From: Nitrospirota bacterium
GTDB taxonomy: Bacteria; Nitrospirota; Thermodesulfovibrionia; Thermodesulfovibrionales; Dissulfurispiraceae
Assembly: GCA_040758355.1 (NCBI GenBank)
Contig: JBFLWF010000004.1
Coordinates: forward strand, 1-64,000
Reading direction: 5' to 3'
DNA: 64,000 nt
The notes under the pieces: model-generated
The model's input: only the letters and a program-made list of their open reading frames with translations
The model's database searches: none
Told to the model about the DNA's origin: nothing
Program-made: the position numbers and the translations under genes
Part shown: in pieces, positions 26,777 to 44,090 of the stretch
How positions within the stretch are numbered: the stretch's first letter is position 1
How the letters are laid out: the number at the start of each line of letters is the position of its first letter

Positions 26777-26807
26777 AGTTAAAGAGAAAACAGGAGTTGC
26801 GGAAACC

Positions 26808-28175
26808 ATGGGCAAACAGCAGGGGTCCCCAAAAAGTCAAAGACCTTTTGGGGCAGAATGGACTGCAGCTGCCCTTTCGACAGTTATTAAACTGAATAAC
26901 ATCATAGGTTTTCTTCCAATAAATATCGACAAGACTTTAAAGGCAGTTGTTGACGAGACATACAACCTTTTCAACCCCCAGATGTGCTGCATATATGTGG
27001 TTGGAGAAGGCAATAACCTTGAACTTGCTGCCTTCAGGACATCAGATGGTTTAATTCCCGATTTCCATGTCAACTCAACTACGGAGGCATGTTCTACATT
27101 GAGAGACGGACTGCCTTATTTAGCCTGTAGGGGAACAAGCTGCAGTGCGTCCATCTGTCCAAACCGCAAGACCCCTGATAATGCCGACATATCCCACGCC
27201 TGCATCCCAATGATAACAGGCAACGATATTCACGGTGTTTTGTCCCTGACATATCAACCGGAAAGGGTTTTGCCGCGGGATAAGTTAAACGTGCTCCTTT
27301 CAATAGCAAACCAGGTATCCATGGCAATCCAGAGGTATAACCTTTTCGAAAAGCTCAGGAAAGAGAAGTCCGAGATTGAGAGGACTTACAGCGAAATAGC
27401 CACCCTCAATGAAATGCTTACAAAGAAGATAGAGGAGCTGAAAGACACCCAGAACAGGCTTATCCAGTCGGAAAAGCTTGCTGCCACAGGGGAGCTTACG
27501 GCCGGTCTGTGCCATGAGATCAACAATCCAATAAGCATAATCCTGAACCGGATTGAGTGTCTTGAAATGGAAGCAAAGGAGCTTCTTTTGCCTGAGAGCG
27601 TGCTGAAAGACCTCGATGTTATATCTTCATATGCTGCAAAGGTTTCATCCATAGTTCAGGACCTCCTTATCTTCTCAAGGCATCATCCGGTAGAATTCGG
27701 ACATATAAATATAAAAGCAATTATTGAAACGGTTGCAGGGATGCTCCATGACGACCTGGACAGAAATGGATGCATCGCGCACATGGATATTCCGCATTCC
27801 GTCCCGGATATTTATGGAGATGCAGACAGATTGGAGCAGGTGTTCAGGAATCTGATAGCAAATGCAATCGATGCCATGCCTGATGGAGGGAATATCTATA
27901 TAGATGCCCGAATCCCCTCTGAAAGACCTGATTTCCTTTTAGTCAGGATAAAGGACGAGGGAGAGGGGATAGCAGAAGAAAATCTGCACAGGATATTCGA
28001 CCCCTTCTTTACAACTAAAAAATTGGGTAAGGGTTCGGGTCTCGGGCTGTCCATCTGTTATGGAATAATAAAGAATCACGGCGGCGATATCACTGTAAAG
28101 AGTGTCCTGAATAGCGGCACTATTTTCAGCGTGTATCTGCCTTTAAGACAGGGAATGGGTGCTGGGTGTGAATAA
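26808..28175 (+). CDS. Cytoplasmic GAF-domain sensor histidine kinase (Cys-rich GAF)
   Basis: GAF (CIPM...GVL, IANQVSMAI), coiled coil, CHEINNP, DEGEG, FDPFFTT, GSGLGL; ATG 26808 has a caggag RBS. Confidence 0.88.
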   Translation: MGKQQGSPKSQRPFGAEWTAAALSTVIKLNNIIGFLPINIDKTLKAVVDETYNLFNPQMCCIYVVGEGNNLELAAFRTSDGLIPDFHVNSTTEACSTLRDGLPYLACRGTSCSASICPNRKTPDNADISHACIPMITGNDIHGVLSLTYQPERVLPRDKLNVLLSIANQVSMAIQRYNLFEKLRKEKSEIERTYSEIATLNEMLTKKIEELKDTQNRLIQSEKLAATGELTAGLCHEINNPISIILNRIECLEMEAKELLLPESVLKDLDVISSYAAKVSSIVQDLLIFSRHHPVEFGHINIKAIIETVAGMLHDDLDRNGCIAHMDIPHSVPDIYGDADRLEQVFRNLIANAIDAMPDGGNIYIDARIPSERPDFLLVRIKDEGEGIAEENLHRIFDPFFTTKKLGKGSGLGLSICYGIIKNHGGDITVKSVLNSGTIFSVYLPLRQGMGAGCE

Positions 28176-29541
28176 AGGAAGGATTCTGGTTATAGAAGAT
28201 GACGAGGAGATGCTTGAAAACTATTCAAGGCTCCTTAAAAGGATGGATTATGAGTGCATCATGGAAAAGGACAGTGTAAAGGCCGCAGAAGAGTTGAGCC
28301 GGCTTTCGCCCGATGTTATTCTCACTGACCTCAGAATGCCCGGCAAAAGCGGTTTTGACATCCTCAGTGCTTCAAAGGAACTCAATCCCGACATGCCTGT
28401 AATTTTAATAACCGCCTATGCAAACATCTCAACCGCTGTAGAGGCTGTAAAACAGGGGGCCTTTGATTTCATTGCCAAACCATTCACATCGGAACAGCTC
28501 AGGATAGCCATTGAAAGGGCAATGAGGCAGAAGACCCTTACCGATGAGAACAAGCAGCTTAAGGAGCAACTAAAGGCATCTTCCATGATAGACGAAATTA
28601 TTGGCAAGAGTCCTGCAATTCAGGAAGTCATCGAGGTCATAAAACGGGTGTCACAGACAGATGCAAATATCCTGATAACAGGCGAAAGTGGAACAGGGAA
28701 GGAACTGGTTGCAAAGGCAATCCATGCAAGGAGCCTTAGAAAGCCGGAGCCCTTTATCCCTGTTGATTGCGCAGCGCTTCCGGAGAATCTCCTCGAAAGT
28801 GAATTGTTCGGATATGAGAAAGGCGCCTTTACGGGTGCAAACACAAGCAAGCCCGGTCTCTTCGAGACTGCGCATGGAGGCACACTGTTCCTTGATGAGA
28901 TCGGCGAGATTCCGATGACAATGCAGGCAAAACTCCTGAGGGCAATCCAGGAGCGGCAGGTGAGGCGGCTCGGCAGTAACAAGTTCATATCCATAGATGT
29001 CAGGATAATATCGGCAACGAACAGGGAAATTAAAAAAAGCGTACAGGAGAAAACATTCAGGGAGGACCTTTATTATCGTCTCAATGTCATCCAGATAAGC
29101 GTTCCTCCTCTTAGAGAGAGAAGGGGTGATATCCCTGTTCTTGCATTACATTTTATGGATAGATTTGCTGCACTGAATAAGAAAGACATAAGAAGTATTT
29201 CTCCCGATGCAATGGGGGTAATGGAAAACTATTCGTGGCCAGGCAATGTGAGGGAGCTTCAAAATATCATGGAAAGGGCAGTTGTTTTGTGCGATGCGGA
29301 TAAAATAACTATAGAGGATTTGCCAAAAGAGGTGTGTATGGCGCCGCCTCCCCTCCCTGTAGAAAACCTGCTGTATAAGGACGCTAAAGAGGCGTGGCTT
29401 GCTGCATTCGAAAAGAATTACCTCTCAAGCCTTCTGAAAGGCACATCAGGCAACATATCGCGGGCAGCGCAAAAGGCAGGAATCGACAGAAAAACAATTC
29501 ACCGGCTTATTAAGAGGTATAAGCTGAACGCTGAGACTTAA
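28168..29541 (+). CDS. sigma54-dependent response regulator (NtrC family)
   Basis: Receiver, GESGTGKE, GAFTGA, WPGNVREL, Fis HTH. Confidence 0.95.
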   Translation: MNKGRILVIEDDEEMLENYSRLLKRMDYECIMEKDSVKAAEELSRLSPDVILTDLRMPGKSGFDILSASKELNPDMPVILITAYANISTAVEAVKQGAFDFIAKPFTSEQLRIAIERAMRQKTLTDENKQLKEQLKASSMIDEIIGKSPAIQEVIEVIKRVSQTDANILITGESGTGKELVAKAIHARSLRKPEPFIPVDCAALPENLLESELFGYEKGAFTGANTSKPGLFETAHGGTLFLDEIGEIPMTMQAKLLRAIQERQVRRLGSNKFISIDVRIISATNREIKKSVQEKTFREDLYYRLNVIQISVPPLRERRGDIPVLALHFMDRFAALNKKDIRSISPDAMGVMENYSWPGNVRELQNIMERAVVLCDADKITIEDLPKEVCMAPPPLPVENLLYKDAKEAWLAAFEKNYLSSLLKGTSGNISRAAQKAGIDRKTIHRLIKRYKLNAET

Positions 29542-29659
29542 ATGTCTCAGTGGGGAAATTCTGCGCCACTCCAAAACAATTACTCTCCTTCCTTATAATT
29601 CTTAATAACTCTTAAATTTTTGAAATGCTGCCTGTATTGTCTGGGGCATTTATGTCTCA
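29532..29659 (+). promoter_or_regulatory. Three 18-bp upstream activator sites
   Basis: TGAGACTTAAATGTCTCA (29532-29549), TGGGGAAATTCTGCGCCA (29551-29568), TGGGGCATTTATGTCTCA (29642-29659). Confidence 0.65.
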
Positions 29660-29722
29660 ATGCACATCCATGAGGAAGTAAATTTAGTGTAAGATACTTG
29701 TTTTTCTTGCTGTTTTTCAATA

Positions 29723-29738
29723 AGGCACGATATTTGCT
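29723..29738 (+). promoter_or_regulatory. sigma54 (-24/-12) promoter of the nos island
   Basis: AGGCACGATATTTGCT, GG-N10-GC. Confidence 0.8.
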
Positions 29739-29767
29739 TATTACCCCCTCCTGAGTTCAAAAATACC

Positions 29768-29785
29768 CTGTAACTTAAGTTACAG
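29768..29785. promoter_or_regulatory. Perfect 18-bp palindrome, Crp-family-like operator
   Basis: CTGTAACTTAAGTTACAG (TGTAA-N6-TTACA). Confidence 0.5.
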
Positions 29786-29919
29786 AAATAAACAAATGTT
29801 TTCATAAATAATGATTTGTTTAGGATTCACATTCGTAAAAATTAACAACAAATTTACAACGATAACGGTTATTATTTAAAAAAATAATAGAAGTATTTAA
29901 AAAACGGGGGAATGCATTA

Positions 29920-31755
29920 ATGCCAAAACAGACCTTTCATGTAGTAATTCCAGACTATAAATACTGGCGGCAGAATATCAAGTGCCAGACAGGATGTCCT
30001 GTAAATACCGATTCCAGAGGATATGTAAGGGCCATATCGGATGGCGATTATGAAAAGGCATACTGGATAGCAAGGATGCCGAATCCCCTTGCATCCATAT
30101 GCGGCAGGGTATGCGCAGCACCATGCGAACTTGCCTGCAGGAGGGGCTGGATTGACGCCTCGATATCGATAAGGGCATTAAAGAGGTTTGTTACCGAGAA
30201 ATACGGTGTAGAGATATATAAAGATAAAAAGGATTTTGCAAAGGATTTCATAAACAGGTTTAAAGAAGAAGGTGTCGGTGTATCAGGCGTAACAGCTAAA
30301 GACATATCAAAGCCTATTTCCATTGTCGGCGCCGGGCCTGCCGGATTAGCATGCGCGCATGAGCTCGCACTCATGGGATATAAGCCCATAATCTATGAAA
30401 TGGAGAAGGTAGCCGGCGGCATGTGCGCTGTCGGGATTCCGCCGTACAGGCTTCCGAGGGAAATACTCCAGGCAGAGATAGATGCGATAAAGGCACTGGG
30501 TGTCGAGATAAGGCTTGGAGTTCAGATAGGCAAGGATATTCCAATAAAAAAATTATACGATGAATCTGCTGCGGTGCTTCTGTCTGTTGGCGCAAAAAAG
30601 TCGAGGATGCTTCCCATAGAAGGCGCTAACGGCAAAGGGGTATTGGGCGGAGTTGATTTCTTAAGAGACGTATTTACAGGCAAAGATGTGAAGATAGGGC
30701 CGAAGGTTGTAGTTATAGGGGGCGGCAATGTTGCATATGATGTGGCAAGGACTTCGGTAAGGCAGAAGGGTATTGAATCTGTCTCTCTCGTATGCCTTGA
30801 GGACTTAGAACATATGCTTGCCGACAAAATAGAGATAGAAGAAGGTGCCGAAGAAGGCATTGAGAGGTTTAACAGCTTTGGCCCTGAAAAGATAAATCTC
30901 GATGAAAACGGAGCTGTGAAGTCAATAACCTTCAAAAAGGTTATATCCATATTCGACAGCGAGGGGAATTTCAATCCGAGGTTTGACGAATCAGACACAA
31001 TGACACTTCCGGCAGATACAATCTTCTTTACAGTAGGACAGGCCTTTGACCTTTCATTTCTTGAAAATTGCGGACTCGATATCGAGAGGACGCCGAGAGG
31101 GACGATAAAGGTAGAACCGGACAAGATAACCACCTCTCTGCCAGGCCTCTTTGTGGCAGGCGACCTGTCATACGGCCCGAGGATTGTGATAGATGCTGTC
31201 GCGAGCGGTAAAAAGGCCGCGCTGGTGATCCATGAGTATATAAGCGGAAGGCATTTAACCATTAAGACATCAGAGATGCACATGGAGCATTACGGCAAGG
31301 ATGTTTTAAATAACGAGGTTTCGCATCCAGAGGATTACGAAAAGATAAAAAGGATCCCTGTTCCGGCACTGCCAACAGAAGAGAGGATAAAGGCCGTATT
31401 TGCTCCTGTTGAACTCGGTTTTACAAAGGATATGGCAGAGGGGCAGGGAGGGAGATGCCTGAACTGTGCTGTCAATACAATATTCAACGGCGACAGATGC
31501 ATACTCTGCGGAGGCTGTTCCGATGTATGCCCTGAATACTGTCTGAGGCTTGTAAGCCTCGAAAATATAAGAGGGGATGAGACCCTGACAGCCCTTTATA
31601 AAAACAGATACGGGAAAGAGCCTGAAGGCACGGGTTCGGCAATCATAAAGGACGAAGACAGGTGCATCAGGTGCGGTCTCTGCGCGAAGAGATGCCCTGT
31701 TGATGCAATAACAATGGAGAGATTTTTATTTAAGGAGGTATGGGTAAGTGAGTAA
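29920..31755 (+). CDS. GltD/NfnB/DsrL-like FAD-dependent NAD(P)H oxidoreductase with C-terminal 2x[4Fe-4S]
   Basis: [58 protein letters not shown]. Confidence 0.85.
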
Positions 31756-32224
31756 CGAGGCTCATGAGAAAACAGGGATGTCAAGGCGGGACTTTTTAGG
31801 TCTTGCATCATTAGGCGCAGCCATAATTTCATCGCTGGCTGTATTAGCAGGAACATTTAGGATGTTCAAACCGAATGTTCGTTATGAAGAGTCGACAAAA
31901 TTCAAGATAGGCAAGCCGGAAGACTTCCCTGCAGGAACAGTAAGAAAGCTTGATGACAAAGGCATCTTTATATTTTCAAAGGATGACGGCATCTATGCGA
32001 TATCGGCTATATGCACGCATCTCGGCTGCATCGTGAATCAGGTAGATTGGGGATTCCTGTGTCCATGCCACGGCTCGAGATACAATGAGCATGGAAAGGT
32101 CATTGGAGGTCCTGCACCGAGGAGCCTTGCATGGCTCGAGATAAGCGAGGCTATTGACGGCAGCCTTGAAGTTGACACGGCAAAGAGTGTTCCTGTCGGG
32201 ACAAAGCTCAAACTTTATGCATAA
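31748..32224 (+). CDS. Rieske [2Fe-2S] protein (Tat-exported)
   Basis: SRRDFL; CTHLGC; CPCHGS; GPAPRSL. Confidence 0.93.
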
Positions 32225-32244
32225 AAAATAAAGAGGTCAAGGCT

Positions 32245-33801
32245 ATGAATGAAATGAAACAATCCGGAATCGATGTATTTAAACATAACATTAAGTCTTT
32301 ACTGGGGTCGTTTGCAGGCTCCTATCTGAGAAGCGGCAAGCCCACATCCGACAAGTCGAGGGCGGCTGCAATGTTCAATAACTTTTTCCTCCATGTCCAG
32401 GGGGTCAAGACGCACATAAATACCTTAAGACCGACTTATACATTGGGTCTGGGGCTTATATCCTTCTTCCTTTTGATCATCACCGTCATATCGGGCGTCC
32501 TTCTTATGGTCTACTACAACCCATCGATAGAGCACGGGTATACCAGCGTAAAGGACATAAACTATGTGGTCTTTGCCGGCAAACTGATAAGGAATGTGCA
32601 TAAATGGGCAGGCGAAGGAATGATAATCTTTGTCCTGCTGCACATGGCAAGGGTCTTCTACACAAGCTCATACAAAAAAGGAAGGGAATTCAACTGGGTT
32701 GTCGGCATAGTACTGCTGATACTCACATTCGGAATCAACCTATCTGGTTATATGCTTCCATGGGATCAGCTTTCATACTGGGCATTGGTTATTGTTGCAA
32801 ACATCATACAATCTCCAAAAGAGATCACAGACTCGCTGGGCATAACAAACTTCTTCGATATCGGCGGCTTCTCTAAAGAGCTATTCCTCGGCGGTTTAAC
32901 TGCAGGCAAGGAATCCCTCACAAGGGTCTATCTACTCCATATAATGCTCTTTCCAATCTTTTTATTCATATTCCTCGGCGTGCATTTCTGGAGGATAAGA
33001 AAGGATGGAGGTCTCACAAAACCGGATGTGTTTGAGCCAAAGCCCATCGATGCAGGATTGGCAGCAATTCCTGAAAAAAGAGGAGGCATATTCCCTACAA
33101 ACAAGACATATGGCCTTATGGAGCTTGCCCATGGCAGGACGCCTGTTGTTGACAGGGATGTGGAAAACACCGTGCTCAGCTGGCCGAATCTCTTAATAGC
33201 AGAGGCAGCGTTGTTTGTATTCTGCCTTGCCGGCGTCACTGTTTATTCATTCTTTATAGACGCGCCGCTTAAAGAATTAGCTAATCCGATGATACCAGAA
33301 AACCCTGCAAAGGCGCCGTGGTATTTTCTTGGTCTTCAGGAACTTCTCTCATACTCTGCATTTATGGGCGGGGTAGGCCTTCCGGGATTGGCGCTCTTAG
33401 GGCTTGCACTTATACCGTATCTTGACAGGGAAGAACAGCATGTAGGAATCTGGTTTTCTAACAAACAGGGGAAGCGTGTTGCCATCGAGGCGCTGATTGC
33501 TGGCACGATTGTAGTAATCGGACTTCTTGCATTCGTGATAAATTTCGGATGGTTCAGGAACTGGTGGCCCAATGTTCCGCAGCTTTTAATCACCCTCATA
33601 AACCCGGGTAATATCTGGGTGGGCTTTATGATTGCGTGGTCGATTTATGTGATAAAGAGGACAGGTTCAACGAGGATGGGTGCAATAGCCTTATTCACGA
33701 TGTTCCTGATCAGCTTTCTGATTTATACATATGTAGGAACTGAATTAAGAGGGCCAAACTGGGATTTCTTCTGGTCGAAGAGCCAGTGGCCGGCTCATTA
33801 A
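32245..33801 (+). CDS. Cytochrome b (fused b6 + subunit IV) of a Rieske/cyt b complex
   Basis: RNVH, LHMAR, GYMLPWDQ, LLH, VHF; PAKAPWYF in place of PEWY. Confidence 0.9.
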   Translation: MNEMKQSGIDVFKHNIKSLLGSFAGSYLRSGKPTSDKSRAAAMFNNFFLHVQGVKTHINTLRPTYTLGLGLISFFLLIITVISGVLLMVYYNPSIEHGYTSVKDINYVVFAGKLIRNVHKWAGEGMIIFVLLHMARVFYTSSYKKGREFNWVVGIVLLILTFGINLSGYMLPWDQLSYWALVIVANIIQSPKEITDSLGITNFFDIGGFSKELFLGGLTAGKESLTRVYLLHIMLFPIFLFIFLGVHFWRIRKDGGLTKPDVFEPKPIDAGLAAIPEKRGGIFPTNKTYGLMELAHGRTPVVDRDVENTVLSWPNLLIAEAALFVFCLAGVTVYSFFIDAPLKELANPMIPENPAKAPWYFLGLQELLSYSAFMGGVGLPGLALLGLALIPYLDREEQHVGIWFSNKQGKRVAIEALIAGTIVVIGLLAFVINFGWFRNWWPNVPQLLITLINPGNIWVGFMIAWSIYVIKRTGSTRMGAIALFTMFLISFLIYTYVGTELRGPNWDFFWSKSQWPAH

Positions 33802-33850
33802 TTAAGAGAGCAAGTGAGTGATCAAATTTTAAGATAAAAGAGGGAGAGAC

Positions 33851-35266
33851 ATGCGCAACAGGTTCTTTTTATGGATATTGTTTTTGTCCGGAGCAGTTCT
33901 CTTTGTTTTTACACTGATTGCTGCTTACAGGGAGATATCGCCTGAATGGAAGAGATATCAGGCGCAATACAAAGAGCAGATCATCAAACTCGCAAAAGAC
34001 GATGCAGTGAAAAAAAAGGCAAAGGAATTGGTTCCGGCAGTGCAGCAGATGTACCTTGGAGCCCTTAACAGGATTGACCGCTGCACGAGCTGCCATATAG
34101 GCGTCGAAAATCCGATGATGGCGAATGCCAAACTGCCGCTTAAGCAGCACAGCGGTGATTATTTAAAGAATCATCCACCTGATAAGTTTGGCTGCACTGT
34201 CTGCCATTACGGACAGGGCCGCGCCACAAACAAAAAAGAGGCGCATGCTGCAACCCGCGATACGCATTGGGACTTCCCGACCATGCCATTAAAGTATATA
34301 CAGAGTTCATGCACGCAATGCCATGATTACGAGATGCTGAGCGCAAAGGGCTATGACAATATCGTTAAGGGGGCAAAACTCTTCAGGGAAAAAGGGTGCA
34401 GGGGATGCCACAAACTAAATGGCATCGGAGGCGCTCTCGGCAAAAAGCTCGATGTTGTCGGCTCACAGCCGATTGCATACTTCCCGATGAGATTTGTCGA
34501 AGGCGACAAGACAACCTACAACTGGCACAAACAGCACTTCACCGATCCGAGGGCGCTTGTCCCGGAGAGCGAGATGAAGATCAATGTTAAGCCGGAGGAA
34601 ACGGATTTGCTGGCAACCTATGCGCTCTCACTCCGCGCAGGGGAGATGCCCAAAGATTACAGGAGAATAAAGGGTACAATGACTGTAGAAAAGCCCGACG
34701 AAGGCGAAGCGCTTTACAAGATGTTCTGCATCGCATGCCATACAGATGGCAAGGAGAGCTACTTTGATGAGATATTCAACCGCACAGTCCCTGCGATTAT
34801 GAAACCTGCGTTCTTAAAGACTGCCGATGAAAAGTACATCAAAAAGGTTATGGAAGATGGTCGTGCAGGCACACAGATGACCTCATGGAAGGCAACTGCC
34901 GGAGGACTTACCGATGCAGAGATTAACAAGATAATCACCTATATAACAAAGGATAGACCGGCTGCAAAACCCGAGAGGTTTGATTTTGCCGGATTTAAAA
35001 CGGATTTAAAACGCGGCGAAGATCTATACAATATCCGCTGTGCGCTCTGCCACGGCAAAAAAGGTCAGGGCGGTGAGGGATTCCTTGGGCTTAACCTGAG
35101 AAATCCTGTGGTGCAGGGCGCCGACCCCGAGTTTCTTGCCATAACGGTCAGGGATGGAAGGTCAGAGACATCCATGCCTCCATTCGGCAAAAAAGGCGTG
35201 GGGCTTACAGACCATGATATAGCAGATGTGGTCTCTTATGTAAAAACACTGTCAAAAAAGAAATGA
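33851..35266 (+). CDS. Membrane-anchored hexaheme cytochrome c
   Basis: Six CxxCH motifs (CTSCH, CTVCH, CTQCH, CRGCH, CIACH, CALCH). Confidence 0.88.
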   Translation: MRNRFFLWILFLSGAVLFVFTLIAAYREISPEWKRYQAQYKEQIIKLAKDDAVKKKAKELVPAVQQMYLGALNRIDRCTSCHIGVENPMMANAKLPLKQHSGDYLKNHPPDKFGCTVCHYGQGRATNKKEAHAATRDTHWDFPTMPLKYIQSSCTQCHDYEMLSAKGYDNIVKGAKLFREKGCRGCHKLNGIGGALGKKLDVVGSQPIAYFPMRFVEGDKTTYNWHKQHFTDPRALVPESEMKINVKPEETDLLATYALSLRAGEMPKDYRRIKGTMTVEKPDEGEALYKMFCIACHTDGKESYFDEIFNRTVPAIMKPAFLKTADEKYIKKVMEDGRAGTQMTSWKATAGGLTDAEINKIITYITKDRPAAKPERFDFAGFKTDLKRGEDLYNIRCALCHGKKGQGGEGFLGLNLRNPVVQGADPEFLAITVRDGRSETSMPPFGKKGVGLTDHDIADVVSYVKTLSKKK

Positions 35267-35300
35267 TTGAAATTAAATATAAAGTGTGAGAGGATTGGAG

Positions 35301-36059
35301 ATGAAAGTTAAAGTATTTGTATTGTCGGTTATTCTCTTAATGTCTCAACAAACAGTCTTTGGAGCAGAGGCTCAAAAGGGCGATTTAGGCAAGAAGGTTT
35401 ATGAAGAGCGCTGCCAGATTTGCCATGGCGCAAAAGGCGATGGCAAGGGACTGGTGGGCGTTATGAAGAGGTCGGAAAAGAGTGGAAGAATTATAAATGT
35501 AGAGGCGAGGGACTTTACCCTCGGTGTCTTCAGGTTCCGCACCACCTCAACCGGATGTCTGCCTGCAAATGAAGACCTTGTATCTTTAGTAAATAAGGGC
35601 ATTCCAAGGTCATTTATGCCGCCTCATAAAGACCAGCTTTCAATGGAAGAAAAGAAGGCTGTTGCCGACCATATAAAGACCTTTTCAACGAGGTGGAAAG
35701 AGGAAGAACCCTGCAAATCCATACCTGTAAAAAAACCAAAATGGGTTGGCAGTCGTTCTTCTGTTGAAAAGGGCAAAAAGATATATAAAGAGATGAAATG
35801 CTGGGAATGCCACGGCGATGATGGAAAAGGCAAAGGACCAAAGTCGGATACGATCAAAGACGACTGGGGAAAACCTATAGTGCCGTTTGATTTTACTACA
35901 GGCGCTACCAAGATGGGAGATGCCCCTGAAAATGTTTATACAGCATATACAACAGGACTTGACGGCACGGGTATGCCTTCATATGAGGACTCTCTGAAAG
36001 AGGACGAGAGATGGCATCTTGTCTCATATACGCTCAAATTGATGGGAAAGGTTAAGTAG
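35301..36059 (+). CDS. Periplasmic diheme cytochrome c, paralog 1
   Basis: Signal peptide; CQICH, CWECH; distal MP motifs. Confidence 0.88.
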   Translation: MKVKVFVLSVILLMSQQTVFGAEAQKGDLGKKVYEERCQICHGAKGDGKGLVGVMKRSEKSGRIINVEARDFTLGVFRFRTTSTGCLPANEDLVSLVNKGIPRSFMPPHKDQLSMEEKKAVADHIKTFSTRWKEEEPCKSIPVKKPKWVGSRSSVEKGKKIYKEMKCWECHGDDGKGKGPKSDTIKDDWGKPIVPFDFTTGATKMGDAPENVYTAYTTGLDGTGMPSYEDSLKEDERWHLVSYTLKLMGKVK

Positions 36060-36218
36060 GGCCTCTGAAGGCCTTTATCTTACAGCACAAGGGGGTGAAT
36101 ATCGAAGAAAAAAGCACGGGGGAATTAGATTAAGGGGTAGCAGTATCTTTTAAACAGTCGGGTAAAAGGAGCAACAAACAGTATCAATAAAAATTGATAC
36201 AAACGGGGAGGCAGAAAA

Positions 36219-37004
36219 ATGAAAGATAATAGTAAAAAGTTAACGACTGCTACAATAATCTTTTTAATGCTTCTAACATTGATCGTTGGAGCAGTTGCTG
36301 TGGATGCAGCAGAGAATAAGACAATCGAGTTGGGCAAGAAGGTCTATGAAAAACGTTGTGTTATCTGCCACGGCCCTAAAGGCGATGGCAAGGGGCTGGT
36401 CGGCATCGTTCACAGGTACCAGAAGAGGGGTGCTGTACAGACTATTTTCCCGAGGGATTTTACAACAGGAGTTTATAGATTCCGCACAACTGCCACAGGT
36501 TGCCTGCCGACAAACGACGATCTTCTGAGAGTTGTAACAGGCGGTATTCCGAGGGCATACATGCCGTCTCATGAGGATGTGCCATTGGATGAAAGGAAAG
36601 CCGTCGCAGAGTATATCAAGACATTTTCAAAAAGGTGGAAAGAGGAAGAAGCGTGCAAGCCTTTTATCGTGAAAGCTCCCAAGTGGGTTGGAAATTCCGA
36701 ATCAACGGATAAAGGTAAAAAATTATACAAAGAGATGAAGTGCTGGGAGTGCCACGGCGAGCACGGCAAGGGTGACGGTCCCAAATCAGACAGGCTGAAA
36801 GACGACTGGGGAGATCCGATACTTCCATTTGATTTTACTACTGGTGCCCTTAAACTGGGGTTTGCTCCCGAAAATGTTTACACAGCATATACAACAGGAC
36901 TCGATGGTTCGGGCATGCCGTCTTATGAGGACTCAATGAGCGAGGAAGATAGATGGCATCTTGTATCGTATACCCTGATATTGATGGGACGCACCAAGAA
37001 ATAA
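36219..37004 (+). CDS. Periplasmic diheme cytochrome c, paralog 2
   Basis: CVICH, CWECH; highly similar to the preceding gene. Confidence 0.88.
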   Translation: MKDNSKKLTTATIIFLMLLTLIVGAVAVDAAENKTIELGKKVYEKRCVICHGPKGDGKGLVGIVHRYQKRGAVQTIFPRDFTTGVYRFRTTATGCLPTNDDLLRVVTGGIPRAYMPSHEDVPLDERKAVAEYIKTFSKRWKEEEACKPFIVKAPKWVGNSESTDKGKKLYKEMKCWECHGEHGKGDGPKSDRLKDDWGDPILPFDFTTGALKLGFAPENVYTAYTTGLDGSGMPSYEDSMSEEDRWHLVSYTLILMGRTKK

Positions 37005-37042
37005 TTTCTTCATGAAACCGAGAAAAAGAAGGAGGTTTGGAA

Positions 37043-38899
37043 ATGTCTGAAAATAAAAATAAAGACAAAAAGCTTGACAGAAGAGGTTTTCTTAAATTTT
37101 TAGGCGTTGCCGGTGCTGCTGCAGGCGCAGGCATGATTACAAAGGAAATTATCCCGGATTCGGCAAAGAAGACCATTGTAGCAAAGGCTGAGGCTGCTGC
37201 CAACGGCAAGCAGAAGTATGAGGTAAAGCCCGGCGAGTATGATACACACTATGGCTTCTGGAGCGGAGGCCATTCGGGCGAGGTAAGGATTCTTGGTGTC
37301 CCTTCAATGCGCGAGCTCAAAAGGATACCGGTCTTTAACCTGGAGTGCGGCTCCGGCTGGGGATATACCAATGAGAGCAAGAAGCTCCTGAGAGGCGTTA
37401 CTGTTGGAGATACCCATCATGTCCACGGCTCTTATAAAAACGGCACATATGATGGCAAATACCTCTTTGTGAACGATAAGATCAACAACAGGGTTGCGAG
37501 GATAAGGATCGATTATATGGAGGTGGATGCGATACTTGAAGTGCCCAATATACAGGGAATGCACGGACTCTTCCCGCAGAGGCATCCAAAGACAGAATGG
37601 GTTGTTGTAAACAGCGAATTTCAGGTGCCTTTCCCCAACAGGCCGGAAGCGCCGCAAAAGGAGTATTATGGAGCACATACCATAATAGATGCAGAAAGGA
37701 TGGCAGTAATATGCCAGGTCATGATAGAGGAAAACCTTGACCTTGCTGCAACAGATTATCAGGGCAAATACTCGATGGCTACTTCCTACAACACGGAGCA
37801 GGGTGTTGTCATCTCAGAGATGCTCGCAGCCGACCATGACTACATGATTGTCTTTAACTGGGAAAGGATAAGGAATGCGCTGAAGAAAGGCAATTACAAG
37901 ACTATAAACGGCGTGAAGGTCATAGACGGAAGGAGGGGTAAATCCGACATAGTTTTAAGGATACCTGTTCCGAAGAACCCGCATGGCGTCAACATATCGC
38001 CTGACGGGAAATATGCTGTCTGCTCAGGAAAGGTCTCTCCGACATGTACGGTTGTCGACCTCTCAAAGTTGGACCTTGCCTATGCAGGAAAGATAAAGCC
38101 GGCAGAATGCGTAGTTGCAGAGCCGTTCATAGGGCTTGGTCCGCTGCATACAACATTTGACGGCAGGGGCAATGCCATAACATCCGTATTCATTGACAGC
38201 ACCAATGTGAAATGGAATATTGCCAAGGCAATTGAAGCAGAAAGGCAGGGACCCGAGGCAAAGAAGAAGAACCCGCATATTGTGGATGTCCTGGATGTCC
38301 ACTACCAGGTAGGACACATGATGGCATCAATGGCCGAGACAAAAGAGCCGGACGGCAAATGGCTCATATCGCTTAATAAGATGTCAAAGGACAGATTCAT
38401 CAATGTGGGCCCGCTGAAGCCCGAGTGTGAACAGCTTGTGGACTGTAGCGGCGACAAGCTCAAGATCGTTCATGACGGCTCGGCTTATATAGAGCCACAT
38501 GACGTTATCCTTGTGAGGAGGGATTTAATAGAGCCGCATGTAAAAGACCGTTACAATATGTTTGAACATCCACTTGCAACAACAAAGAGCGGGGTTGAGA
38601 GGAAGGGGAATGATGTTATTGTCAGAATGACAGCAAATGCCCCGATGTACGGGCTTCAGGAAGTCAGGGTGAAGAAAGGCAACAGGGTTACTGTCATTGT
38701 GACGAACAATGATGAGATATCCGATCTTACGCACGGCTTTGCCCTTGAACGCCACAACATCAGCTTTGTGGTCGCACCCTTCCAGACAAAATCAGCGACA
38801 TTCACAGCAGACAAGCCCGGCGTATACTGGGCATACTGCACAAACTTCTGCCATGCACTACACCTCGAGATGAGGATGAGGTTCATAGTGGAAGCATGA
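37043..38899 (+). CDS. nosZ: Nitrous oxide reductase with Tat signal
   Basis: DRRGFLK; CuZ histidines (DTHH, MHG, NPHG, GPLH, VGH, EPH); CuA HG...CTNFCHALHLEM; no C-terminal heme domain. Confidence 0.97.
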   Translation: MSENKNKDKKLDRRGFLKFLGVAGAAAGAGMITKEIIPDSAKKTIVAKAEAAANGKQKYEVKPGEYDTHYGFWSGGHSGEVRILGVPSMRELKRIPVFNLECGSGWGYTNESKKLLRGVTVGDTHHVHGSYKNGTYDGKYLFVNDKINNRVARIRIDYMEVDAILEVPNIQGMHGLFPQRHPKTEWVVVNSEFQVPFPNRPEAPQKEYYGAHTIIDAERMAVICQVMIEENLDLAATDYQGKYSMATSYNTEQGVVISEMLAADHDYMIVFNWERIRNALKKGNYKTINGVKVIDGRRGKSDIVLRIPVPKNPHGVNISPDGKYAVCSGKVSPTCTVVDLSKLDLAYAGKIKPAECVVAEPFIGLGPLHTTFDGRGNAITSVFIDSTNVKWNIAKAIEAERQGPEAKKKNPHIVDVLDVHYQVGHMMASMAETKEPDGKWLISLNKMSKDRFINVGPLKPECEQLVDCSGDKLKIVHDGSAYIEPHDVILVRRDLIEPHVKDRYNMFEHPLATTKSGVERKGNDVIVRMTANAPMYGLQEVRVKKGNRVTVIVTNNDEISDLTHGFALERHNISFVVAPFQTKSATFTADKPGVYWAYCTNFCHALHLEMRMRFIVEA

Positions 38900-38911
38900 T
38901 TGTATAAACAA

Positions 38912-38947
38912 GAATTGGGGTCAGGAAATCGCTCCTGACCCCAATTC
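38912..38947 (+). terminator. 15-bp stem-loop after nosZ (terminator or mRNA stabiliser)
   Basis: GAATTGGGGTCAGGA-aatcgc-TCCTGACCCCAATTC. Confidence 0.7.
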
Positions 38948-39018
38948 AATTCTTGATTATAAGAACAGATAGTAATTTATGTTAAAGTATAAATTATAAT
39001 TAGAAAGAAGGAACTGCC

Positions 39019-40098
39019 ATGAGAAAAACCATACTATCACTAATATTCCTTTTTGTTTTCATTTACACAGGCATTGGGTACAGTGAGCAATGGAAACTGT
39101 TTGAACATAGATACAGCTATAAATTGGAGGATGTGCTTCAGGCATCGAAATTTGTACAGAAAAAGGGCTACTGGGAAGGTTACAAAGATAATAAACTCGT
39201 AGGTTATGTCTTTATATCCAAGGATTGGACGAGCAAATTGGTCGGTTATGCAGGTAAGCATCTCGAAACGCTTATCGGTATGGATACAAACGGAAACATT
39301 ACGGGCGTAAAACTTCTCTTTCACTCGGAGCCTATAGTCCTGATCGGCCTTAAAGAGGAGCATTATCTGGACTTTATAAAACAATATAAAGGGAAAAACA
39401 TAAAGAGCCCCCTGTCTGTGGGCAGGGAAATATCGATGGATGTCATTACAGGGGCTACGGTTACTGCTGTCGTTCAGAACTCGATAATCCTCGAGAGTGC
39501 GAGAAAGGTTGCCGATGCCACAGGCGTGCTGAAGGTTGCAAAAGGCAAAGGTCGGAAGCTCAGCCAGAAATATGCAGCGCTCACATGGGATGAACTGAAG
39601 AAATCAGGCGCACTTAAAAACATCGTGATAAGGCACAAAGACCTGGGAATCGAAGGCGAAGACCCCTTTCTCGACCTCTATGTCGGAGTTGCGACACAGC
39701 CTTCCATAGGCAGGAGTCTTCTCGGAGATGCTCTCTACAGGGATATCATGGGAAGGCTGAAGAACGGCGAATCTGCGATAGTCATATTTTCAAGAGGGAA
39801 AGGGTCGTTTAAAGGCACCGGATTTGTCCGCGGAGGCGTATTTGACAGATTTAATATTGAACAGGGCGCCAAGGTTCATATGCTGACGGACAAGGATTAC
39901 AGGGTCTTATCCGAACTCCATGCAAAGGGCGCTCCATCTATAGATGAAGGGGGCGTGTTCATTATCAGGGGCAGGGATTTTGATCCGACAGAGCCTTTTA
40001 AATTGAATCTTATACTCCCTTACCGTGTTTCTGTTGCCAAAAAGGAGTTCAAATCTTTTTATACGGAGTACGAGATTCCGGAGAGGTTTTTAGAATAA
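39019..40098 (+). CDS. nosR: NosR N-terminal periplasmic FMN-binding part
   Basis: GYAGK, HSEPI.LIG, DVITGATVT flavinylation motif, FKG.GFVRGG.FDR. Confidence 0.85.
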   Translation: MRKTILSLIFLFVFIYTGIGYSEQWKLFEHRYSYKLEDVLQASKFVQKKGYWEGYKDNKLVGYVFISKDWTSKLVGYAGKHLETLIGMDTNGNITGVKLLFHSEPIVLIGLKEEHYLDFIKQYKGKNIKSPLSVGREISMDVITGATVTAVVQNSIILESARKVADATGVLKVAKGKGRKLSQKYAALTWDELKKSGALKNIVIRHKDLGIEGEDPFLDLYVGVATQPSIGRSLLGDALYRDIMGRLKNGESAIVIFSRGKGSFKGTGFVRGGVFDRFNIEQGAKVHMLTDKDYRVLSELHAKGAPSIDEGGVFIIRGRDFDPTEPFKLNLILPYRVSVAKKEFKSFYTEYEIPERFLE

Positions 40099-40101
40099 TT
40101 C

Positions 40102-42366
40102 ATGTCATCGTTTAGCAGCTTATTAAAGCATATCTTCGAAGATACAATTGAGACACTGAAAATTATCCCATGGATGCAGATATGGGCGCAGAAATGGGCC
40201 TCGATTGCCGTCTTCGCAATATTCCTGTTCGCATTGATAATGATGATGGTTTTCAAGGACAGGCTTGCTAAAAACAGGAAGGTGCTGAATATAGTCGCTT
40301 ACGGTATACTGCCATTTTCGTTTATATATGTTGGACTCGTACTAAAGGCGCAGCCCACAACAACCAACATCGTTATATTGATCAATGGAATAAAAGAAGG
40401 GTCTTTTCCTTTAGGCCTCTTTATCATGGAGCCGTATATATTCCTGTCATTTCTCTTTATTCTTTTAACCATCCTTTTATGGGGCAGGGGCGTTTTCTGC
40501 GGCTGGCTCTGTCCATATGGTGCAATGGTTGAACTTTTAAATAAACTTTATGATAGGTTTTTCCGCAGATTCAGGTTGAGCCTTCCAGAGAAGATTCACT
40601 GGAAGCTTATTTACCTTAAATATGTAATATTCGCAATCATATTAGGCGTATCTTTCTACAACTTCATGCTTTCCGAATACCTTGCCGAGGTCGAACCCTT
40701 CAAGAGCTTTGTATTGAAACTTCACAGGCAGTGGTATTTTGTCCTTTATTTTATCCTGATAACAGCAGGCTCGGTAATAATATACAGGGCGTACTGTCGC
40801 TACCTCTGTCCCCTCGGCGCTGCTTTGAGCTTACCCTCATTCATTAAGTTGATACCTCTGATAAAACTCAAAAGACATGACACGTGTAGAATATGTAAGA
40901 TATGCGGCAGGAGCGAATGCAATTATCAGGCCATTACACCGCATGGCAATATTAAAGTTACCGAATGCCTTAGCTGTCTTGAATGTCAGATAAACTTCTG
41001 GGATGAGGACAAATGCCCTGCATTGATAAAAAAGAAAAAGGAGGGTCGCTCTACAGTCTTCAGCCTTTTACCGTTTGCTTTTTTAATTATATCTGCAATG
41101 CTATTTGTCCCTTCGCTGACATATGCAAAGGCTATAATTGTAGGGACCGATTATCGCACAATCGGCGATGCCCTGAAAAAGGCTAAAAATGGAGATGTCA
41201 TAGAGGTCAAGGCAGGAGAATACAGGGAGAGGCTTAAGATAGATAAGGCCGTGCATCTTAAGGGTATAAACAACCCTGCAATCATTGAAAGCGGAGGGCT
41301 TATAATCACGATAGCGGGCAGGGGCGTTACTGTAGAAGGGTTTACAATCAGAGACGAAAATCCAACATCCCAGTTAGAGAGCGCCGGGATATATATTTCC
41401 AAAGGTTCCGATGGGGCTGTTATAAAAAACAACCGCCTTTACAGCGTTATGCACGGCGTCTGGAGCGTTAGCGCCAGAGGCATAAGGGTGGAAAACAATT
41501 ACATCGAGAGCAAAAAGGATCTCGATAGGAACTACAGGGGTAATGGAATATATCTCGTAGACAGTCAGGAAGCAACTATTATAGGGAACAGAATGGATCA
41601 CTGCCGGGATGGAATGTACATAGAGGTTTCTCACGACGGGAAAATAATGGGCAATGATGTAACAAACTCCCGTTATGCAGTACACACAATGTGGGTGGAC
41701 AGGGTTGTTTTCTCTAAAAACAGGGCATCAGGCAATCTGGTTGGGTTTGCTATTATGTATTCAAAGCAATCCGAGATTACAGATAATATTGCTGTGGGCA
41801 ACAGCACGCACGGCATCCTTCTGATTCAGACTGTAAGGAGCTACATAGCAAGAAATACAGTAATAGGCAATACCAAAGGGGTCTACTTTTACAACTCGAT
41901 ATTTAACAACTTAGTCTCCAATCTTATAATGAATAATAGTCTTGGCCTGCATAACTGGGGAGGTTCCGAAGACAATGCCGTGAATAAGAATTCCTTTATC
42001 GGCAACGAGGTTCAGGTAAAGTTTGTTGCAGGCAGAAACCAGCAGTGGGATAATAACTACTGGAGCGATTATCTGGGATGGGATATGAACGCCGACGGCA
42101 TCGGCGATATGCCATTCGAATCCAATACAGTGGTTGACCATATCTTATGGAGATACCCTGCTGCCAAGTTGTTGTATGCAAGTCCTTCTTTCCAGTTTCT
42201 CTGGATGCTCGAAAAGCAGTTTCCGGTTCTGAAGGTTCCGAGGGTGTTTGATGCAAAACCATCCATGCTTCCGTTGCACAAAGACTGGAAGGAGTTAAAG
42301 GCCAAATATCCATACGCCCCTGAAAAATACTACGGTGAGATGGAAAAAATCCCTGTTGCCCATTGA
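40102..42366 (+). CDS. nosD: Fusion of the NosR C-terminal membrane/FeS domain with NosD
   Basis: WGRGVFCGWLCPYG, EVEPFK, YCRYLCPLG, C..C....C, CLSCLEC, then NosD beta-helix (RGNGI, RDG.Y, RY.VH.M, NYWSDY.GWD...DGIGD). Confidence 0.88.
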   Translation: MSSFSSLLKHIFEDTIETLKIIPWMQIWAQKWASIAVFAIFLFALIMMMVFKDRLAKNRKVLNIVAYGILPFSFIYVGLVLKAQPTTTNIVILINGIKEGSFPLGLFIMEPYIFLSFLFILLTILLWGRGVFCGWLCPYGAMVELLNKLYDRFFRRFRLSLPEKIHWKLIYLKYVIFAIILGVSFYNFMLSEYLAEVEPFKSFVLKLHRQWYFVLYFILITAGSVIIYRAYCRYLCPLGAALSLPSFIKLIPLIKLKRHDTCRICKICGRSECNYQAITPHGNIKVTECLSCLECQINFWDEDKCPALIKKKKEGRSTVFSLLPFAFLIISAMLFVPSLTYAKAIIVGTDYRTIGDALKKAKNGDVIEVKAGEYRERLKIDKAVHLKGINNPAIIESGGLIITIAGRGVTVEGFTIRDENPTSQLESAGIYISKGSDGAVIKNNRLYSVMHGVWSVSARGIRVENNYIESKKDLDRNYRGNGIYLVDSQEATIIGNRMDHCRDGMYIEVSHDGKIMGNDVTNSRYAVHTMWVDRVVFSKNRASGNLVGFAIMYSKQSEITDNIAVGNSTHGILLIQTVRSYIARNTVIGNTKGVYFYNSIFNNLVSNLIMNNSLGLHNWGGSEDNAVNKNSFIGNEVQVKFVAGRNQQWDNNYWSDYLGWDMNADGIGDMPFESNTVVDHILWRYPAAKLLYASPSFQFLWMLEKQFPVLKVPRVFDAKPSMLPLHKDWKELKAKYPYAPEKYYGEMEKIPVAH

Positions 42367-42376
42367 GGTGAATTTA

Positions 42377-43273: not shown

Positions 43274-43277
43274 TGCT

Positions 43278-44090
43278 ATGAGGGCTATAGCCCATAAAGA
43301 ACTTTCCGATAAATTGAAGAGCAGGTGGGTCCTGGTGATTGCTGTGGGATTTGCTGCGCTCACCATTGTTATTTCATATTTTGGAGGGGCTACTGCAGGC
43401 GTTGCAGGGTTCAGGAGCATAGATGCAACCATTGCCAGTCTCACGAGCCTCGTAACCTACTTTATACCTATCTTAGCCCTCACCCTCGGCGGCGGAATAG
43501 TTGCGGATGAGCGTGATAAGGGCACGCTCGAGATATATCTATCGTCCCCTATATCCATCGGTGAATTCATCATGGGAAAATTCTTCGGCCTCGCCATTGC
43601 CCTCGCCATCTCCACACTTGTGGGTCTCGGCGTTTCCGGCGCAATATTGCTGATAAATCTGGGCTTCGGCGCAATAGGCAGTTACAGCATATTCATGCTC
43701 AACTCTGTAGTCCTCGGCCTTATTTTCCTGAGCGTCTCATTTTTAGTGTCCATTCTCTTCAATGAGAGGGCAAGGGTTATTGCCTTTACCGTATTCCTCT
43801 GGCTTTTCTTCGCAGTGCTTTATGACCTGGGTCTGGTGGGCCTTCTCATAATAACCAAAGGCACTGTCGGAAATGAAATATTTTCCACCCTCCTGACATT
43901 AAATCCAGTTGATGTGTATCGCATTCTGAACTTCTTATCCATCGGTGAACTCAAGGTGTTTTTAGGACTGGCATCTGTCGAGCTTCCGTCATACATGAAG
44001 ACGCCTGTCCTATGGGTCATATCGCTGCTGTGGGTGGTGCTGCCCCTTATTGCGAGCTATCGCCTCTTTAAAAGGAGATATCTGGCGTGA
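43278..44090 (+). CDS. nosY: ABC permease NosY
   Basis: IA.KE, E...GTLE..LS.P, GKF.G, YDL, LNP.D.YR. Confidence 0.9.
   Translation: MRAIAHKELSDKLKSRWVLVIAVGFAALTIVISYFGGATAGVAGFRSIDATIASLTSLVTYFIPILALTLGGGIVADERDKGTLEIYLSSPISIGEFIMGKFFGLAIALAISTLVGLGVSGAILLINLGFGAIGSYSIFMLNSVVLGLIFLSVSFLVSILFNERARVIAFTVFLWLFFAVLYDLGLVGLLIITKGTVGNEIFSTLLTLNPVDVYRILNFLSIGELKVFLGLASVELPSYMKTPVLWVISLLWVVLPLIASYRLFKRRYLA

Follow-up and report, generated by a model that had tools for sequence, protein, structure and literature searches.

A clade I nosZ behind a flavoprotein-bearing Rieske/cytochrome b module in a Nitrospirota genome: a possible NAD+-reducing relative of the anammox complexes

We analysed a stretch of 64 000 nucleotides from a Nitrospirota bacterium (assembly GCA_040758355.1, contig JBFLWF010000004.1, positions 1 to 64 000 of the forward strand; hereafter the window), in which the gene for a clade I nitrous oxide reductase (NosZ) lies behind genes for a flavo-iron–sulfur (Fe-S) protein, a Rieske protein, a cytochrome b and three multihaem cytochromes c. 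Judged by its sequence, the encoded complex is a new variant of the Rieske/cytochrome b complexes of anaerobic ammonium-oxidizing (anammox) bacteria, a kind of complex that was itself known before. The best reading, to which we give about an even chance of being right, is that it bifurcates electrons from menaquinol to NAD+ and N2O. The module is not reserved for N2O; in relatives the same plug-in is combined with nitrate or oxygen enzymes. Published work is cited by PubMed Central (PMC) identifier.

Organization of the locus

The genes follow one another on the forward strand in the order flavoprotein, Rieske protein, cytochrome b, hexahaem cytochrome, two dihaem cytochromes and nosZ (Table 1). 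Each of them had been named in an earlier reading made from the letters alone (the sequence-only reading), and each was found where that reading had placed it. The intergenic gaps from flavoprotein to nosZ are −8, 20, 49, 19, 159 and 32 nt; the reported overlap of the flavoprotein and Rieske genes thus amounts to 8 nt (31748–31755), and counts of six, two and two CxxCH motifs agree with the hexahaem and dihaem assignments. The gene order cannot be put down to chance, because it recurs in relatives, and the module would be co-transcribed through nosZ.

A sigma-54 promoter motif precedes the flavoprotein gene and lies downstream of the genes for a GAF-domain histidine kinase and a sigma-54 regulator. 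The pattern has 34 matches in the whole 2.77-Mb genome. Among 33 related loci it precedes the flavoprotein gene in three (L001, L008 and L085), all of which have a sigma-54-type activator upstream; in none of the 33 was an FNR-type box found ahead of this gene. No second sigma-54 motif was found before nosZ in the window, and scans for sigma-70 promoters (16 matches, compared with 17.7 in shuffled sequences) and for terminators (6 compared with 9.2) gave no excess.

NosZ scores 815.7 bits on TIGR04244, the model for the type exported by twin-arginine translocation (TAT), and 482.4 bits on the Sec-type model, the cut-off being 625 in each case. The CuZ-type histidine motifs and the CuA motif were located.

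Rieske protein, cytochrome b and multihaem cytochromes

The Rieske protein contains the motifs CTHLGC and CPCHGSRY, and the Ser and Tyr that constitute a high-potential signature (PMC4122944) are both present. A potential of about +0.3 V would be expected from this motif; the Kuenenia Rieske homologue has been measured at +303 mV (Hauser, 2025; PMC12954380). The best match of the protein in the Protein Data Bank (PDB) is the Kuenenia protein 9rk4. Two modules from Ca. Magnetobacterium have tandem Rieske genes (L026, 9015–9983; L029, 9014–9982).

In cytochrome b the haem ligands are H119, H133, H232 and H247, and the Qo motif is APWY (KAPWY at 356). The Kuenenia models place His43/Arg247 and His62/Arg266/Lys267 at a haem between cytochrome b and the flavoprotein (Hauser, 2025; PMC12954380). 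By alignment, H50 corresponds to His43 and His62, and R252/K253 to Arg247 and Arg266/Lys267; among ungapped rows H50 is invariant in 77 of 77 and R252 and K253 each in 79 of 79. The second histidine of the Kuenenia HLH is replaced by Q52. At the position of the cysteine that holds haem cN, GLGL replaces CxGG, with glycine in 76 of 77 rows; given the change from CMGG to GLGL, haem cN cannot be attached. The position that we take to be that of the bc1-type Qi histidine holds an arginine.

The N-terminal dihaem part of the hexahaem cytochrome is homologous to Kuste4573 (29% identity over 147 residues), and its C-terminal domains are of class I type, with the conserved Met242, Met343 and Met442 as candidate ligands. 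Where nosZ lies elsewhere, one dihaem cytochrome (of the first type) remains with the bc module (L087, L092 and L096). One is also found directly upstream of nosZ in all six loci that have no nosZ behind the module on the same contig (L081–L084, L097 and L098), two of which may reflect assembly breaks. Because it stays in front of nosZ in these six separated loci, dihaem cytochrome c 2 is the likely direct donor to NosZ.

Comparison with the anammox complexes and other cytochrome b families

The Kuenenia Rieske/cytochrome b complexes encoded by Kuste4569–4574 and Kustd1480–1485 are said to have been described by Kartal in 2013 and de Almeida in 2016. The sequence-only reading had proposed kinship with such oxidoreductase-bearing complexes, and both the match of the Rieske protein to 9rk4 and the residue-level agreements support it. 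Locus L132 encodes the exact 9rk4 protein, and L131 and L132 agree in gene set and residue numbering with Kustd1480-85 and Kuste4569-74 as described by Hauser (2025; PMC12954380). The window and Kuenenia complexes share a Rieske protein, a b6-type cytochrome b, a subunit IV, a multihaem cytochrome c and an NAD(P) Fe-S flavoprotein; at the residue level they share APWY, the four b-haem histidines, the extra histidine with its Arg/Lys and the flavoprotein pattern of Fe-S cysteines. Sequence identity is 34% to Kuste4570 and 38% to Kustd1483 over about 600 residues for the flavoprotein, and 37–41% for cytochrome b. In both organisms the gene set lies beside a high-potential terminal enzyme, and a hexahaem or octahaem cytochrome takes the place of c1/f.

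There are also clear differences. Cytochrome b and subunit IV are fused in the window and split in Kuenenia; the haem cN motif CMGG of Kuenenia is GLGL here; CLE is found where both Kuenenia flavoproteins have YRR; the window hexahaem is homologous in its first two haems only; and the partner is NosZ rather than an octahaem cytochrome resembling hydroxylamine oxidoreductase. Three loci from Planctomycetota genomes (L137, L138 and L140) contain split, cN-bearing relatives with octahaem cytochromes and no adjacent flavoprotein gene.

A quick tree of 83 b6 domains, which left out over-sampled Verrucomicrobiota, Bacteroidales and Chloroflexota rows (23 ids), places the window in a 43-row Nitrospirota/Desulfobacterota clade with a Shimodaira–Hasegawa-like approximate likelihood ratio test value (SH-aLRT) of 100. 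The window clade is separate from the cN-bearing anammox rows.

Cytochromes b of subfamily G often adjoin NAD(P) oxidoreductase genes, and their long forms tend to lose CxGG (Dibrova, 2017; PMC5600118). Kao and Hunte (2014; PMC4122944) interpreted APWY as a sign that a complex runs in reverse. The window complex has in common with subfamily G and the APWY clade the APWY motif, the adjacent NAD(P) oxidoreductase, the loss of CxGG in long forms and a mid-to-high-potential Rieske protein; a link to nosZ is absent from the available portions of both accounts. The supplementary trees of both papers may already contain members of this clade, and in Nitrobium the complexes are named simply Rieske bc1/petBC (PMC8906906). 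Our literature search, which did not cover most subscription papers, found no description of this module with nosZ.

The flavoprotein

The best PDB matches of the flavoprotein are NfnABC, StnABC, NfnI and GltD. Its predicted structure has a predicted local distance difference test score (pLDDT) of 91.7, and 17 near-invariant cysteines are sufficient for about four Fe-S clusters. Residues 292–294 (CLE) align with the YRR of NfnABC-type proteins and of both Kuenenia flavoproteins, and 119 of the 121 closest flavoprotein sequences have C-[ILVM]-E at this position. The alignments thus agree with the sequence-only reading, which had noted CLE where NADP(H)-preferring members have YRR, and the motif is NAD-type rather than NADP-type. 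R591 aligns with Arg550 of Kustd1483. We regard the protein as a probable cytoplasmic NAD(H)-type FAD/Fe-S protein resembling NfnA, StnC, GltD and DsrL. A natural NADP-type variant is seen in L034 (7430–9364), where the module flavoprotein retains YRR and stands beside a second GltD/NfnB-like gene.

With the DsrL, NfnA/StnC and GltD types (PMC7596348; PDB entries 9bov, 8oh5, 9n5u and 5jca) the flavoprotein shares an N-terminal Fe-S domain, FAD and NAD(P) Rossmann folds, a linker and a C-terminal 2[4Fe-4S] ferredoxin domain, and the loss of YRR is common to it and the NAD-type DsrL-1 (PMC7596348). In contrast to these types, it has an extra CxxC (513/516) and a fifth cysteine (541) in the first C-terminal motif, and its partner is a membrane cytochrome b. 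NAD-type DsrL enzymes accompany NAD+ reduction (Loeffler, 2020; PMC7596348), and the flavoprotein may be likened to DsrL as a docking NAD module. We do not file it as DsrL: the domain order is alike, but dsrAB lies on another contig (C1). Assignment as the bifurcating transhydrogenase NfnI (NfnAB) was also rejected, since the operon has no small-subunit partner and YRR is missing; a separate NfnAB-like pair is encoded elsewhere in the genome, on C52.

Possible docking of the flavoprotein on cytochrome b

The linker between the two parts of cytochrome b was surveyed in 80 fused proteins with enough flanking DNA; three more were dropped at contig edges and split forms were excluded. In all 66 with an adjacent flavoprotein gene the linker is 49–64 residues long, and 65 of these match a KTYGLMEL-like pattern. 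In 13 of the 14 without an adjacent flavoprotein gene (the flavoprotein-less versions being L019, L023, L033, nine Bacteroidales loci and L066) it is 15–23 residues; the exception, L150, has a long linker and, at a distance of 6 kb on the opposite strand, a flavoprotein homologue. On the tree there are four linker changes, all separate deletions, and five changes of adjacency.

Structure prediction with one copy of cytochrome b (residues 25–335), the whole flavoprotein and no haems gave a score of 0.58 for the pair, compared with 0.00 for the best control; the runs share 97% or more of their contacts, and partner pLDDT is at least 82. Of 157 solved complexes 116 attained the prediction mark, as did two of 215 mismatches. 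Taken together with the survey, this suggests that the flavoprotein may dock on cytochrome b through the linker loop.

Partner enzymes and the link to nosZ

The sequence-only reading had proposed an electron path dedicated to N2O. This was not sustained, since the same module lies beside Nxr/Nar-type, oxidase-like or NapA-like enzymes or none. Among the 42 other rows of the window's cytochrome b clade, nosZ lies downstream of the module in 10, and in eight the neighbour is a periplasmic Nxr/Nar-type enzyme closest to Kuenenia nitrite oxidoreductase 7b04. A cbb3-type oxidase pair (below the NCBIfam cut-off) adjoins the module in five, and haem O synthase with a gene read from its sequence as oxidase-like in two. 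Two more have no flavoprotein and a type II enzyme of the dimethyl sulfoxide (DMSO) reductase family upstream; nine have no such terminal enzyme within the fetched DNA, and six end at a contig edge. In more distant loci the module is found beside NapA-like or Nxr-like enzymes. On the tree the partner label changes at least nine times, and between nosZ and others five times.

Within the lineage, a link to nosZ does hold. In a sample of 151 genomes of the class, 18 have clade I-type nosZ, 16 of which carry the module cytochrome b, and in 11 of the 18 nosZ lies 3–4.5 kb behind the module, the genomes being related rather than independent. Only two of the 123 genomes without the module have clade I nosZ; nosZ–nosR without the module is found in G030 and G130.

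Two variants were noted during the survey. In L095 (11412–15176), L019 and L023 the linker is shortened, the flavoprotein is missing and the DMSO-reductase type II enzyme lies upstream of the module's Rieske gene. In L088 (94–5608) a NuoF-like gene stands between two cytochromes b with fused Hdr/MvhD-like Fe-S domains, beside a flavoprotein module and haem O synthase.

Mechanism and alternatives

In menaquinol bifurcation, the complex would oxidize menaquinol and split its two electrons. The high-potential electron would pass from the Rieske protein through the hexahaem and dihaem cytochromes to NosZ, and the low-potential electron would reach the docked flavoprotein and NAD+ by way of the b haems and a further, predicted haem. 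The net reaction would be 2 MKH2 + NAD+ + N2O -> 2 MK + NADH + N2 + H2O (MKH2, menaquinol; MK, menaquinone). N2O would act as an irreversible sink that keeps the high-potential chain oxidized, and a Wood–Ljungdahl autotroph would gain NADH without reversal of complex I. The docking, the extra haem, the NAD specificity and the direction of electron flow are what we infer in this scheme. As to direction, NosZ and cbb3-type oxidases accept electrons and do not donate them, so the outer branch should run outward from quinol to NosZ, and this one-way coupling argues against the reverse mode suggested for APWY complexes. NAD+ reduction is favoured at the inner branch because the cN trap is absent, the bridging-haem residues are invariant and a pumping complex I already serves NADH oxidation; a non-pumping route for NADH oxidation would waste energy in a genome with a full NuoEFG complex I. 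The haem cN trap is the main obstacle named by Hauser to bifurcation in Kuenenia, where quinol-driven NAD(P)+ reduction is likewise only a proposal (PMC12954380).

The high N2O/N2 potential, which the sequence-only reading had suggested as the drive, retains a role through N2O as irreversible sink, but the drive itself is capped by the Rieske protein at about +0.3 V and not set by +1.355 V. We computed the bifurcation step with assumed Rieske values of +0.26 to +0.335 V and a menaquinone potential of −74 mV. With the Rieske protein 100:1 oxidized the step comes to −2.5 to −12.6 kJ per quinol against 150–180 mV. Being near equilibrium under the membrane potential, it needs a strong irreversible sink; N2O, nitrate and O2 all qualify, which fits the swapping of partners.

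A number of observations weigh against menaquinol bifurcation. At standard states the computed step is −1 to +9 kJ per quinol against 150–180 mV, and complex I, Rnf and NfnAB are already in the genome for reverse electron flow. Many close Rieske homologues have S-F instead of the S-Y signature, and in the interpretation of Kao and Hunte APWY signals a reverse mode (PMC4122944). E320, at the position of the Qi-site acid, is kept in 79 of 80 rows and might permit quinone reduction at the inner face. With regard to docking, the linker survey reduces to three independent pairs on starred branches (sign test p 0.25), the split-type L078 has the linker motif although no flavoprotein lies near it, and the exact motif is missing from Kuenenia subunit IV. 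The position of Arg511 in Kuste4570 aligns with Gly532 of the flavoprotein. The score of the predicted complex is weak support, since its band (<=0.60) contains only 18 of the 157 solved complexes but both mismatches.

Electrons might instead enter from NADH, passing through the flavoprotein, its Fe-S chain and the b haems to menaquinone at the inner site, while a normal Q-cycle feeds NosZ. We consider this, the main rival, rather unlikely, and the same holds for its physiological form, a fast NADH:N2O sink protecting Co(I)-dependent Wood–Ljungdahl enzymes from N2O. The conserved E320 and the NAD-type motif, as in catabolic flow, are consistent with such a route, and the transfer from NADH to N2O releases 323 kJ, so efficiency would not be limiting. 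The host also has CODH/ACS (carbon monoxide dehydrogenase with acetyl-CoA synthase), N2O oxidizes Co(I) corrinoids (PMC10960958), and a corrinoid cassette lies upstream. However, cytochrome b has neither the haem cN cysteine nor the Qi histidine, a pumping complex I is present, and the module also pairs with nitrate enzymes, where energy is scarcer. For Kuenenia, Hauser (2025) rejects this route on grounds of efficiency, by argument rather than measurement (PMC12954380).

The remaining explanations are all improbable to us. That the low-potential branch mainly feeds the cytoplasmic Fe-S part of NosR and so keeps CuZ active, with bulk NAD turnover minor, seems very unlikely: the NosR halves do come after nosZ, but Nar-, cbb3- and Nap-linked modules, whose fetched loci have no nosR, conserve the flavoprotein just as well, and G030 and G130 have nosZ–nosR with no module. 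A shade less probable again is a complex working in reverse, in which periplasmic cytochromes reduced by Sox or by nitrite oxidation would, with NADH, reduce menaquinone, nosZ being a mere neighbour on the cytochrome pool. The APWY clade has been proposed to run backwards (PMC4122944), and sox-like genes, so named from sequence, lie beside an Nxr-like enzyme on C11. Against this stand the tight coupling to NosZ and cbb3-type oxidases, which drain the cytochrome pool, and a promoter motif that precedes the module and is not repeated before nosZ in the window. We give least credence to a soluble, independent flavoprotein that is merely co-transcribed with an ordinary menaquinol:cytochrome c reductase serving NosZ. 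Flavoprotein-less versions that retain the core do exist, and bc complexes that feed NosZ are textbook (PMC6195509), but the overlapping genes, an adjacency conserved across many phyla and the joint loss of the linker speak for association, as does the co-migration of the Kuenenia subunits cited by Hauser (PMC12954380).

The nos cluster and neighbouring genes

The clade I gene set nosR, nosD, nosF, nosY and nosL is complete, with nosR split and placed after nosZ. The fusion of the NosR C-terminal half to NosD recurs in L018, L085, L083 and L084, the two being separate in other relatives; a split nosR is also found in the clade II cluster of G050 (L156).

As proposed for the window, the clade I system of Paracoccus, with genes nosRZDFYL, passes quinol electrons through a Rieske/cytochrome b complex and c-type cytochromes to NosZ. 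In Wolinella, Hein is said to have reported in 2017, the clade II NosGC1C2H system operates with a Rieske/cytochrome bc complex in N2O respiration. The window differs from known bc-dependent N2O respiration in having the bc genes inside the nos cluster together with a cytoplasmic flavoprotein, in the clade I nosZ of a Nitrospirota host, and in its split NosR with the C-terminal half fused to NosD. The supply of NosZ by bc complexes as such is long established (PMC6195509).

Further downstream (54998–63582) are genes for a heavy-metal P-type ATPase, a DsbD-like protein, a TonB-dependent receptor and a NapH/NosH-like polyferredoxin, possibly concerned with copper supply for NosZ. Towards the other end are genes for a Hyf/Ech-like membrane complex of group 4 hydrogenase type (12543–20901), the putative large subunit of which matches Complex1_49kDa. 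The region 469–11168 holds genes read from their sequences as CBS-domain proteins, SLC13/ArsB-NhaD-like transporters, a TauE/SafE-like permease and two-component proteins.

Table 1. Features of the window (nucleotide positions; all on the forward strand)
Feature	Position	Strand	Basis or remark
Laterally shared island	22720..52801	+	Spans corrinoid cassette to nos accessory genes
Corrinoid (B12-binding) protein	22776..23432	+	PF02310/PF02607; DxHxxG motif kept in 20/20 aligned rows
MtaA/CmuA-like protein, URO-D fold	23444..24460	+	PF01208; TIGR01463 below cut-off
DUF1638 protein	24468..25082	+	Profile match
RACo/AcsV-type reductive activator of corrinoids	25046..26776	+	PF14574, PF17651, Fer2; NF040756 below cut-off
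GAF-domain histidine kinase	26724..28175	+	Profile match
Sigma-54-dependent response regulator	28159..29541	+	Receiver, AAA with GAFTGA, Fis HTH
Sigma-54 −24/−12 promoter motif	29724..29738	+	182 nt before flavoprotein start
Flavo-Fe-S protein	29920..31755	+	611 residues; Fer4_20, Pyr_redox_2, C-terminal Fer4
Rieske [2Fe-2S] protein	31748..32224	+	TAT-type anchor; overlaps flavoprotein gene
Cytochrome b fused to subunit IV	32245..33801	+	518 residues; b6 domain and subunit IV
Cytochrome b linker, residues 256–312	33010..33180	+	KTYGLMEL motif; predicted cytoplasmic docking loop for flavoprotein
Membrane-anchored hexahaem cytochrome c	33851..35266	+	6 CxxCH
Dihaem cytochrome c 1	35286..36059	+	2 CxxCH
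Dihaem cytochrome c 2	36219..37004	+	2 CxxCH
nosZ, TAT-exported, clade I type	37037..38899	+	TIGR04244 match and copper-site motifs
G+C hairpin, 15–16 bp stem	38912..38947	+	Directly after nosZ; candidate terminator or 3' stabilizer, from a scan that as a whole was no better than shuffles
NosR N-terminal half, FMN-binding	39019..40098	+	Profile matches
NosR C-terminal Fe-S half fused to NosD	40102..42366	+	NF046105 positions 392–679, then TIGR04247, 372 bits
NosF and NosY-like ABC transporter	42335..44090	+	Profile matches
Accessory genes	44087..49937	+	Two CarboxypepD_reg-domain proteins, SCO, transglutaminase-like, thioredoxin-like, two NosL

The upstream corrinoid cassette

The six genes ahead of the promoter motif form a cassette with a corrinoid protein, an MtaA-like protein and a two-component system. 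Alignment to 4ay7 shows S-I-A in the MtaA-like protein where MtaA has H-I-C, the H-x-C of MtaA being its zinc-ligand motif. All 16 close MtaA-like rows have S-I-A/T, and the histidine is retained in two of three distant rows. Assignment as an MtaA/CmuA methylcobamide methyltransferase was rejected for the missing H-x-C motif, and the protein is probably not a zinc methyltransferase. A protein in which the B12-binding and URO-D parts are fused also exists (P0169).

A close MtaA-like homologue (at least 45% identity) is found in 16 of 390 genomes of the class. Thirteen of these 16 have nosZ, compared with 26 of the 374 others; where all homologues are distant (17 genomes), nosZ does not occur. 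Nine of the 13 genomes have the cassette and nosZ on one contig and strand, the cassette lying upstream by no more than 14 kb. It accompanies nosZ of both clades; in G050 and G620 it stands directly before a clade II-type nosZ, with a sigma-54 motif in between. A metagenome scan with the MtaA-like protein returned three short loci. Several findings speak against strict specificity for N2O: in G603 and G604 the cassette precedes an Nxr/Nar-linked module, and nosZ was not found; in G561 it is accompanied by neither the regulator nor nosZ; DUF1638 and RACo are frequently absent; and the cassette loci with a Crp gene after the regulator have no sigma-54 motif. In the window a Crp/Fnr-family regulator gene (21976–22683) lies just outside the shared island, and relatives of it precede the module or nosZ in L012, L020, L089, L165, L168 and L178.

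N2O reacts with Co(I) (PMC10960958), and it is possible, though we lean against it, that the cassette is a corrinoid-based sensor for N2O or related oxidants. A wider proposal, which seems to us distinctly unlikely, would make the island a self-contained N2O response unit, combining a cobalamin N2O sensor with N2O-pulled bifurcation at a bc complex that has no working inner quinone site. RACo would keep the corrinoid at Co(I) and N2O would oxidize it; a catalytically dead MtaA-like protein would read the corrinoid state and signal through the GAF kinase and the sigma-54 regulator; and the induced operon would use N2O to pull quinol bifurcation, NAD+ being reduced directly at the bc complex. 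Our literature search found no dedicated or corrinoid-based N2O sensor described; most subscription papers lay outside its coverage.

The host genome and lateral transfer of the island

The host genome (2.77 Mb, 99% complete) has its nearest named relatives in Nitrospirota, Thermodesulfovibrionia. It contains dsrAB (C1), CODH/ACS, complex I with NuoEFG, a second Nuo set, NiFe hydrogenases and futalosine menaquinone genes; reading of the sequences adds Rnf, NfnAB, cNorCB, NrfHA, sox genes, an Nxr-like enzyme and a second, plain Rieske/b6/subunit IV set. No clear NirS was found in the host (a weak PF02239 match only), and nirK was not searched for. This gene content indicates an anaerobic autotroph that needs NADH and is able to use nitrogen oxides. 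On C11 (46370–56125, L152), genes for an Nxr/Nar-type molybdoenzyme with 59% identity to the module-linked enzyme lie among soxB, soxA, soxY and soxX-like genes.

The region 22720–52801 is 89.7–92.5% identical in DNA sequence to G078, a genome of another genus, with a gap at 44131–44879. A housekeeping gene, read from its sequence as rpsA, shows 75% identity to G078 and 94% to a same-genus genome, and the module and nosZ were not found in the four same-genus genomes searched. The island is shared laterally, since its identity to G078 far exceeds the housekeeping value and it was not found in these four genomes.

Implications

Reduction of NAD(P)+ by quinol bifurcation at a Rieske/cytochrome b complex has been proposed for anammox bacteria, in which the high-potential partner reaction is itself uncertain. 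Here the partner, NosZ, is simple to assay and works in one direction only, which fixes the direction of the outer branch, and variants that occur in nature, some having the flavoprotein and its loop and others lacking them, serve as built-in controls. If menaquinol bifurcation is correct, the NAD+-reducing bc complex postulated for anammox bacteria would have its first tractable example here; if the proposal for the cassette is correct, it would be a dedicated cobalamin-based sensor for N2O. The findings also draw attention to sulfur-cycling Nitrospirota of groundwater type as sinks for N2O that carry a mobile clade I nos island.

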